This document shows positions 9,013 through 10,067 of a stretch of 64,000 nucleotides of DNA, piece by piece (position 1 is the first letter of the stretch; every line of letters starts with the position of its first letter). The position numbers are program-made. The DNA lies in assembly GCF_057098645.1 (NCBI RefSeq), contig NZ_CM169472.1. One strand, written 5' to 3'.

Positions 9013-10067
9013 TTACCTCCGCTTTGTAAAGACCATTGATGCTCTCCGCCATCGCGTTGTCATACGAGTCGCCTGTACTTCCTGTTGATGCCAGTAATCC
9101 GGCTTCCTTAAGCCGCTGTGTGTAGGCCAGCGATACATACTGAGAACCTTTATCACTGTGATGGACCGTGCCGGACGGTCGACGGGCCCATAACGCCTGC
9201 TCCAGTGCATCCAGCACGAATGTCGTCTCCATGGACGATGAGACCCGCCACCCCACAATGTATCCGGCAAACACATCAATGATGAACGCCACATAGACGA
9301 AGCCCTGCCATGTGCTGACGTAAGTAAAATCAGCCACCCACAGCTGGTCAGGTCGTTCTGCCACGAACTGACGGTTTACGCGGTCGCCTGCGGCAACGGC
9401 TTTCCGGCTGATGGTCGTACGGACCTTTTTACCCCGGAGAACACCGGCAAGTCCCATAACCGCCATGAGACGTGCCACAGTGCATCTGGCCACTCTGATA
9501 CCTTCCCGTAACAACTGACGCCAGACTTTACGCACACCGTATACCTTGTGATTTTCATCGTATACGCGCTGTATCTCTTTCTTCAGCCAGTCATCGCGCT
9601 GCGCACGGGCACTGCGTTTATCCGGATGATGTCGCTGTTGCTGACAGTGGTAATACGTTGACGGGGCAATATGCAGTTCGCTGCATAGCGGTCCGACCCC
9701 GTACTGCTCACGCAGCTTATCCAGCAGTGGCATCATTTTTTCCAGAGGCGGTCGAACTCCGCCTTCGCAAAATAAGCGGAAGCCTGGCGAAGGATATCGT
9801 TACTGCGGCGCAGTTCACGATTTTCACGCTCCAGCTCTTTCAGACGCTGACGTTCAGCGGTGGTGAGCCCTCCATCACCGCCCCCGGTATCCCGCTCATG
9901 CTGGCGAACCCAGACACGCAGAGTCTCCGGCGTACAGCCAATCTTTGGAGCAATGGAACAAATTGTCGCCCATTGTGAGTCATATTCGCCCTGACTTTCC
10001 AGAACCATACGGACTGCCCGTTGACGGACTTCAGGGGAAAAACGAGTATTTTTAGTCATCCTGTTTA

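Follow-up and report, generated by a model that had tools for sequence, protein, structure and literature searches.

A U_UUU_G tetramer with an ALIL pseudoknot, rather than the A-run at the orfA stop, as the probable main frameshift site of an IS629-type element

Introduction

The closest described relative of the element studied here is IS3411, in which, as Mazauric and colleagues reportedly found in 2008, the ALIL structure stimulates -1 frameshifting. The frameshift region of IS3 is said (by Sekine and colleagues, in 1994) to consist of an A_AAG tetramer and an H-type pseudoknot. In IS3, moreover, an AUGA overlap between stop and start codon is used for the coupled synthesis of OrfB. Some IS elements use transcriptional realignment on runs of A or T, a process that needs about 8-9 or more identical bases to be efficient.

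Reporter measurements in E. coli place the ribosomal motifs on a common scale (Sharma et al. 2014, Table S2, PMC4066793). Without and with a strong pseudoknot, respectively, the values are 0.14% and 0.80% for U_UUU, 0.17% and 1.78% for U_UUC, and 0.13% and 0.26% for A_AAA, the weakest active tetramer. The same work lists U_UU[U,C] tetramers among the motifs of IS3-family members (PMC4066793), and transcriptional realignment in IS elements is discussed in PMC5009743.

In this study, we focus on one IS629-type copy in a window of 64,000 nucleotides (NCBI RefSeq assembly GCF_057098645.1, contig NZ_CM169472.1), whose numbering is used throughout. A sequence-only reading of this window had proposed the A-rich run at the junction of orfA and orfB as the programmed -1 site. 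We find that the locus shares its layout with IS3411 and the ALIL family (RF01497; Mazauric et al. 2008): a U-rich tetramer, a 5-nt spacer, stem 1, a spacer of about 45 nt that holds the orfA stop, and stem-loop 2. Compared with that system, the IS629 clade carries GUUCGA/UCGGAC for GCUCGA/UCGAGC in the paired loops and an extra A6 run before the stop; otherwise there is essentially no difference.

Two further systems help to place the locus. As in the IS3 frameshift region (in the construct of PMC4066793), its slippery motif is a tetramer and not a heptamer, a 5-nt spacer follows, and the orfA UGA lies within the pseudoknot downstream. Unlike IS3, however, the tetramer is U_UUU and not A_AAG, and the pseudoknot is of the loop-loop (ALIL) kind and not a compact H-type. 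As at the A_AAA_AAG sites of the IS911, IS150 and dnaX type, a -1 shift would fuse a DNA-binding ORF to a DDE catalytic ORF. The A-run differs from those sites in that it reads G_AAA_AAA, is out of phase and ends in A followed by U instead of G; it also lies downstream of the first stem of the stimulator and is unconserved among relatives.

Our main reading, to which we give a probability of roughly 0.8, is that OrfAB is made chiefly by a shift at U_UUU_G aided by the ALIL pseudoknot, and that the A-run is not the main site. The U_UUU_G and ALIL signal, the A-run junction and the element type are all already described.

The orfA/orfB overlap

The features of the element are collected in Table 1. 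From 9750 to 9727 the minus strand reads ...CGC CTC TGG AAA AAA TGA TGC CAC..., and the junction that had been proposed from sequence, TGG AAA AAA TGA TGC with an orfA stop and orfB start overlapping as ATGA, is exact at 9744..9730. The A6 run spans 9741..9736, the orfA TGA 9735..9733 and the first orfB ATG 9736..9734, in the -1 frame; a GGA stands 6 nt upstream of this AUG.

Table 1. Features of the IS629-type element and its surroundings (window positions)
Feature	Position	Strand	Remarks
IS629-type IS3-family element, complete	8804..10113	(-)	1310 bp; each terminal inverted repeat found once
Left inverted repeat (IRL)	10087..10113	(-)	TGAACCGCCCCGGGAATCCTGGAGACT
Right inverted repeat (IRR)	8804..8830	(+)	24/27 bases identical to IRL
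Target-site duplication GTC, left copy	10114..10116	(-)	flanks ...ACCAGTC-IS-GTCTCC...
Target-site duplication GTC, right copy	8801..8803	(-)	
orfA	9733..10059	(-)	108 aa, stop included in span; HTH_Tnp_1 domain (E = 6e-13)
orfA/orfB overlap	9733..9799	(-)	67 nt; orfA frame and -1 (orfB) frame both open
U_UUU_G slippery tetramer	9768..9772	(-)	codon UUU 9771..9769; most likely programmed -1 site
ALIL stem-loop 1	9747..9763	(-)	GGCGG-AGUUCGA-CCGCC; 5-bp stem, 7-nt apical loop, 5 nt past the U-run
A-run motif	9730..9744	(-)	UGG AAA AAA UGA UGC: A6, orfA stop, orfB AUG; AUGA overlap
ALIL stem-loop 2	9662..9701	(-)	internal loop UCGGAC (9696..9691) pairs with stem-loop 1 apical loop GUUCGA (9757..9752)
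orfB ORF, from first ATG	8846..9736	(-)	296 aa; HTH_21 and rve domains (E = 5e-28)
DDE codons of orfB	D 9331..9329; D 9154..9152; E 9046..9044	(-)	read from sequence

With orfA ending at 9733 and the -1 frame open from 9799 onward only, a productive -1 shift must fall within these 67 nt. Just two slippery tetramers occur in phase in this interval: U_UUU followed by G (9772..9768), and A_AAA followed by UGA. The first lies 33 nt upstream of the A-run motif, and the second is supplied by the second AAA codon only. In the phase of orfA the run reads G_AAA_AAA, not the canonical X_XXY_YYZ, and the P-site tRNA would re-pair to GAA.

Runs of six A are not unusual in the window (89 on both strands vs 82 +/- 12 in shuffles). 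The 11-mer AAAAAATGATG recurs at 35958..35968 on the plus strand, outside any IS; with up to one mismatch it has 5 matches in the window against 2.9 expected, which is consistent with chance.

The U-site and the ALIL pseudoknot

The Rfam ALIL model (RF01497) matches 9778..9662 across its whole length (model 1-117 of 117) at 120.2 bits, far above the gathering score of 50 (E = 2.6e-32). Within the model, the conserved UAUUUUG occupies positions 5-11 and the tetramer U_UUU_G positions 7-11. The tetramer is a slippery motif 5' of stem 1 with an open -1 frame, and U_UUU ends 5 nt before the stem. The apical and internal loops are complementary (GUUCGA/UCGGAC, 6 pairs, one of them G-U). Both hairpins fold better than shuffled sequences, stem-loop 1 at -7.7 kcal/mol (z = -2.2) and stem-loop 2 at -16.4 kcal/mol (z = -2.3). 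Identical copies in RefSeq carry the labels 'programmed frameshift' and 'AL1L pseudoknot'.

Between stem-loops 1 and 2, a spacer of about 45 nt holds both the orfA stop and the A-run, and the A-run is thus 3' of stem 1. The layout given by Atkins et al. fits this 45-nt gap, and its geometry puts the shift site 5' of stem 1. A stem-loop or pseudoknot downstream of the junction had been suggested as a check on the A-run; one does exist, but the ALIL structure would serve the U-run, starting 5 nt after U_UUU. Stem-loop 2 starts 34 nt downstream of the A-run. In the region where a stimulator would be expected for the A-run itself, 5-9 nt past it, segments of 36 nt (z = -0.33) and 52 nt (z = -0.94) yielded no stimulatory structure relative to shuffles. 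The A-run is a weaker motif without a correctly spaced stimulator, since A_AAA falls below U_UUU in the reporter assays, both alone and with a pseudoknot (0.13% and 0.26% vs 0.14% and 0.80%).

A hairpin 3' of the A-run (ACUGCU...AGCAGU) was also considered as a private stimulator; it folds no better than shuffles and was rejected.

Comparison across relatives

Relatives were gathered from plasmids (10, by tblastn) and from genomes (80, by genome scan, at 54-66% amino-acid identity). Alignment A3 holds 72 non-redundant relatives at about 50-66% identity, drawn from Alpha-, Beta- and Gammaproteobacteria and Streptomyces. The signal upstream of the A-run is widespread among them. The Rfam ALIL model matches all 10 plasmid relatives (8 above the gathering score), and a covariance model built from seven sequences finds matches in 73/73 sources searched. 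In 70 of the 72 relatives, U_UUU or U_UUC stands in the orfA frame with its end 5 nt short of stem 1, and the full U_UUU_UUY heptamer is present in six of the 70. The orfA stop follows 12 codons downstream of the U-site in 62 of them.

The A-run behaves differently. Only 4/72 relatives (this window, two of its close relatives and a fourth sequence) have A_AAR within the two codons preceding the stop, and the A-rich motif at the stop is missing from the remaining 68, which keep the same overlap geometry. The ATGA overlap of stop and start, on the other hand, is common (42/72), which fits a junction for termination and re-initiation that is independent of any A-run. The base before the orfA stop splits by lineage: the 42 ATGA relatives are mostly Alphaproteobacteria and the IS629 clade, and 22 relatives, mostly Betaproteobacteria, have CTGA or GTGA. 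Re-initiation of OrfB on an overlapping AUG is thus no general feature of the group.

In the 72-sequence alignment, which was fitted to the ALIL model so that the pairing counts lean somewhat toward the structure, standard pairs fill 94.3% of the cells of the ALIL pairing, vs 31-47% once the partners are displaced by 1-3 columns; the values are 98.6% for stem 1 and 99.1% for the loop-loop helix. Nine pairs have changed on both sides, and the observed values were reached by 0/500 shuffles. In the loop-loop helix, a compensatory change from C-G to U-A occurs precisely in the IS629 clade, which has GUUCGA/UCGGAC where most ALIL members have GCUCGA/UCGAGC (one compensatory pair, one G-U). This covariation supports the predicted pseudoknot.

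Three relatives depart from the common arrangement. In the Sphingomonas formosensis copy (L015:968-1099), an orfA UAG comes two codons after the U_UUU codon, and therefore fusion there would be possible from the U-site only; alternatively, this copy is a nonsense mutant. Another (L016:970-1141) has about 40 nt inserted into the apical loop of ALIL stem 1, and in a third (L050:1012-1145) the slippery position is disrupted. The latter two are probably decayed copies.

Fusion junctions in protein databases

Protein databases offer a second view of the junction, provided that one keeps in mind that their junctions are the output of the NCBI annotation pipeline and not independent experimental evidence. 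The RefSeq CDS joins the two frames at UAU_UUU, 33 nt upstream of the A-run, giving ...SAYF/CEGG... (a slash marks the junction). We built the fusion expected from a shift at each position of the overlap and looked up ten of these by exact sequence in a collection of 15 billion proteins. The U_UUU-site fusion was the sole one of the 10 to be present (258 contigs, named 'MULTISPECIES: IS3 family transposase'); an exact match for the A-run fusion (...RLWKK/MMPLL...) was absent from the collection.

Among the 120 best homologues, YF/CEGG appears in 117/120 and WKK/MM in 0/120, a tally of little diversity in that the search with the full OrfAB protein returned near-identical copies only. A peptide search across the A-run junction returned fragments and no full-length protein. 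Its sole full-coverage match (P0121, 80 aa, from a 243-nt contig) reads ...WKNNALL..., a scrambled sequence and not an annotated A-run fusion. The family model NF033516 scores the U-site fusion at 371.3 bits and the A-run fusion at 366.6 bits; this gap of 4.7 bits is small and makes for weak evidence.

Altogether, the idea that OrfAB arises by a -1 shift within the overlap holds up, with orfB in the -1 frame and 67 nt open in both frames, but the A6/ATGA motif finds no support as its programmed site. The RefSeq join, the position of stem 1 on the 5' side of the A-run, the contrast of 70/72 with 4/72 among relatives and the null result of the folding all point away from it. The sequence-only reading had itself pointed out that a different site in reference copies would count against the A-run, and the annotated and conserved site is indeed another one, U_UUU.

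Proposed mechanism and alternative readings

We infer both that ribosomes do use U_UUU for shifting in the present copy and that translational coupling at the AUGA yields OrfB; the identity of the shift codon follows from annotation, Rfam and comparative data. In the proposed mechanism, a small fraction of the ribosomes that translate orfA would slip back by one base at U_UUU (then G, 9772..9768) and go on to make OrfAB. The slip would be stimulated by the apical loop-internal loop (ALIL) pseudoknot, formed by stem-loops 1 and 2 with their loop-loop pairing. Non-shifted ribosomes would terminate OrfA at the A6-UGA-UG motif, 3' of stem 1, where re-initiation to give a separate OrfB could be permitted by the AUGA overlap, with GGA 6 nt ahead of its AUG. 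The A-run is thereby best read as the AUGA junction of orfA stop and orfB start, with no more than a secondary part in shifting. For annotation, this implies that in IS629-, IS1203- and IS3411-type elements the A-run/ATGA should not be taken for the transposase-making signal, and that joining the two proteins at the A-run would give an incorrect linker of 11 residues.

A secondary role for the A-run is the alternative that fares best, and we regard it as possible, if doubtful. Both sites would then be used, U_UUU_G for the major OrfAB and the A-run for a minor OrfAB' that differs in its 11-residue linker alone and may have a distinct role in transposition. The only two in-frame slippery tetramers of the overlap are indeed these, U_UUU then G and A_AAA then T. 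Chen and Hu reportedly tested TTTTG and an A-run-type motif. The title of their paper speaks of 'two frameshift products' in IS629 (Chen & Hu 2006, J Biol Chem 281:21617); the second product could, however, stem from some other motif, e.g. the upstream GAA_AAU, which would give a truncated OrfA. The A-run is also derived in the IS629 clade and well kept there. Across 129 IS629-type copies from prophage contigs, it is A6 in 109, AAAAAG in 18 and A7 in 2, that is, A6 or A5G in 127/129. Against a second site, the A-run has no stimulator at the right spacing, and its expected efficiency is near background, about 0.13%.

The two A7 copies (L185 and L197, IMG/VR prophage contigs) bear on this question from both sides. 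In L185 the extra base gives one continuous orfA-orfB ORF of 404 aa with the junction ...RLWKKMMPLL...; an ORF of this kind is thus at least tolerated and, if real, would represent a constitutively fused transposase. Yet A7 may reflect homopolymer sequencing errors in these copies, an explanation that is plausible because L197 carries a second indel in addition to A7. Apparent 'U7' variants in the prophage contigs proved to be junctions left by truncation and do not represent variants of the motif.

A more specific and rather unlikely version holds that recoding also takes place at the A6 of the IS629 clade, as a second functional site, through either ribosomal slippage at A_AAA-UGA or slippage from A6 to A7, and that the resulting OrfAB' has a distinct regulatory role. 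If true, IS629 would tune its activity through competition between two frameshift sites that flank stem 1.

That the A6 at the orfA stop (G_AAA_AAA_UGA) is itself the programmed -1 site, with ...RLWKK/MMPLL... as the transposase, we consider very unlikely. The run does lie within the doubly open 67 nt and contains the A_AAA tetramer, and the 18/129 AAAAAG variants would still be slippery as A_AAG. A stop codon directly after a slippery codon can, moreover, promote slippage in the P site. The position of the run is nevertheless unfavourable: it is 3' of stem 1, where the pseudoknot would already be unwound when the ribosome arrives, stem-loop 2 is too far away at 34 nt, and the sequence between folds no better than shuffles. 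In addition, the motif is confined to 4/72 relatives, its fusion is absent from the protein collection, its phase is not X_XXY_YYZ, and A_AAA reaches only 0.26% even with a strong pseudoknot (PMC4066793).

Slippage of RNA polymerase at the A-run, in which A7 transcripts from the A6 template would put orfB in frame with no ribosomal shift, is extremely improbable: one added A does give a continuous orfA-orfB frame, as in L185, but A6 is short for efficient slippage, the run is absent from relatives, and conserved ribosomal frameshift signals lie upstream.

The element and its insertion site

The element retains every part required for transposition. It belongs, by its sequence, to the IS3 family and is of the IS629 / IS1203 / IS3411 type, in agreement with the initial assignment, which the inverted repeats, the GTC duplication, the HTH and rve domains, the NF033516 match and the 100% identical copies all bear out. 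Its size, its TG...CA inverted repeats and its 3-bp target duplication lie within the range of the family (about 1.2-1.5 kb, 3-4 bp). The termini read 5'-TGAAC...GTTCA-3', and the inverted repeats begin TGAACCGCCCCGGG..., with 24/27 positions alike. Its two ORFs overlap, orfB lying in the -1 frame; OrfA has an HTH domain and OrfB an rve domain. Against NCBIfam NF033516 'IS3 family transposase', the fused protein aligns from end to end at 371 bits (cutoff 160).

The DD(35)E triad with its downstream K is intact, and the point mutations in the DDE residues that had been raised as a possible objection are absent. Residues D244, D303, E339 and K346 (fusion numbering) are invariant among relatives in alignment A1, with 35 residues from the second D to the E. 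A sequence search of the PDB returned no relatives of OrfB.

Over its full 1310 bp, the DNA is 100% identical to many copies in E. coli genomes, annotated 'IS3 family transposase', and in Shigella. Related plasmid copies share 93-97% amino-acid identity and are labelled IS629 or IS1203. Of 5426 complete E. coli genomes, 4259 hold related copies; the median number of places per genome is 4 and the largest 53. In Shiga-toxin-producing E. coli, the diversification of genomes is driven to a large extent by IS629.

The IS splits ynbD (PAP2/dual-specificity phosphatase), which adjoins ynbC (flanks: window 7897..10601); rejoining the flanks with a single GTC restores the ynbD reading frame. On this genome comparison the insertion is strain-specific and recent, because the exact contiguous IS-ynbD junction occurs in 0 of the 5426 complete E. 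coli genomes and the empty site in 4603 of them, including O145:H28 strains whose flanks are 100% identical. It can be seen as the mark of a recent transposition and might serve as a strain-typing marker. The insertion thus speaks for an element that may still be able to move. With inverted repeats, duplication, ORFs, DDE residues and frameshift signals all intact, the copy looks fully competent. The suggestion that the element is translationally competent and potentially still mobile is in this way upheld, even though its proposed shift site is not.

ynbD may be a repeated IS target. In E. coli AR_0013 (L092, NZ_CP032204.1 3890450-3894630), an independent IS3-family insertion lies elsewhere in ynbD, and a group II intron (ltrA) truncates this insertion in turn.
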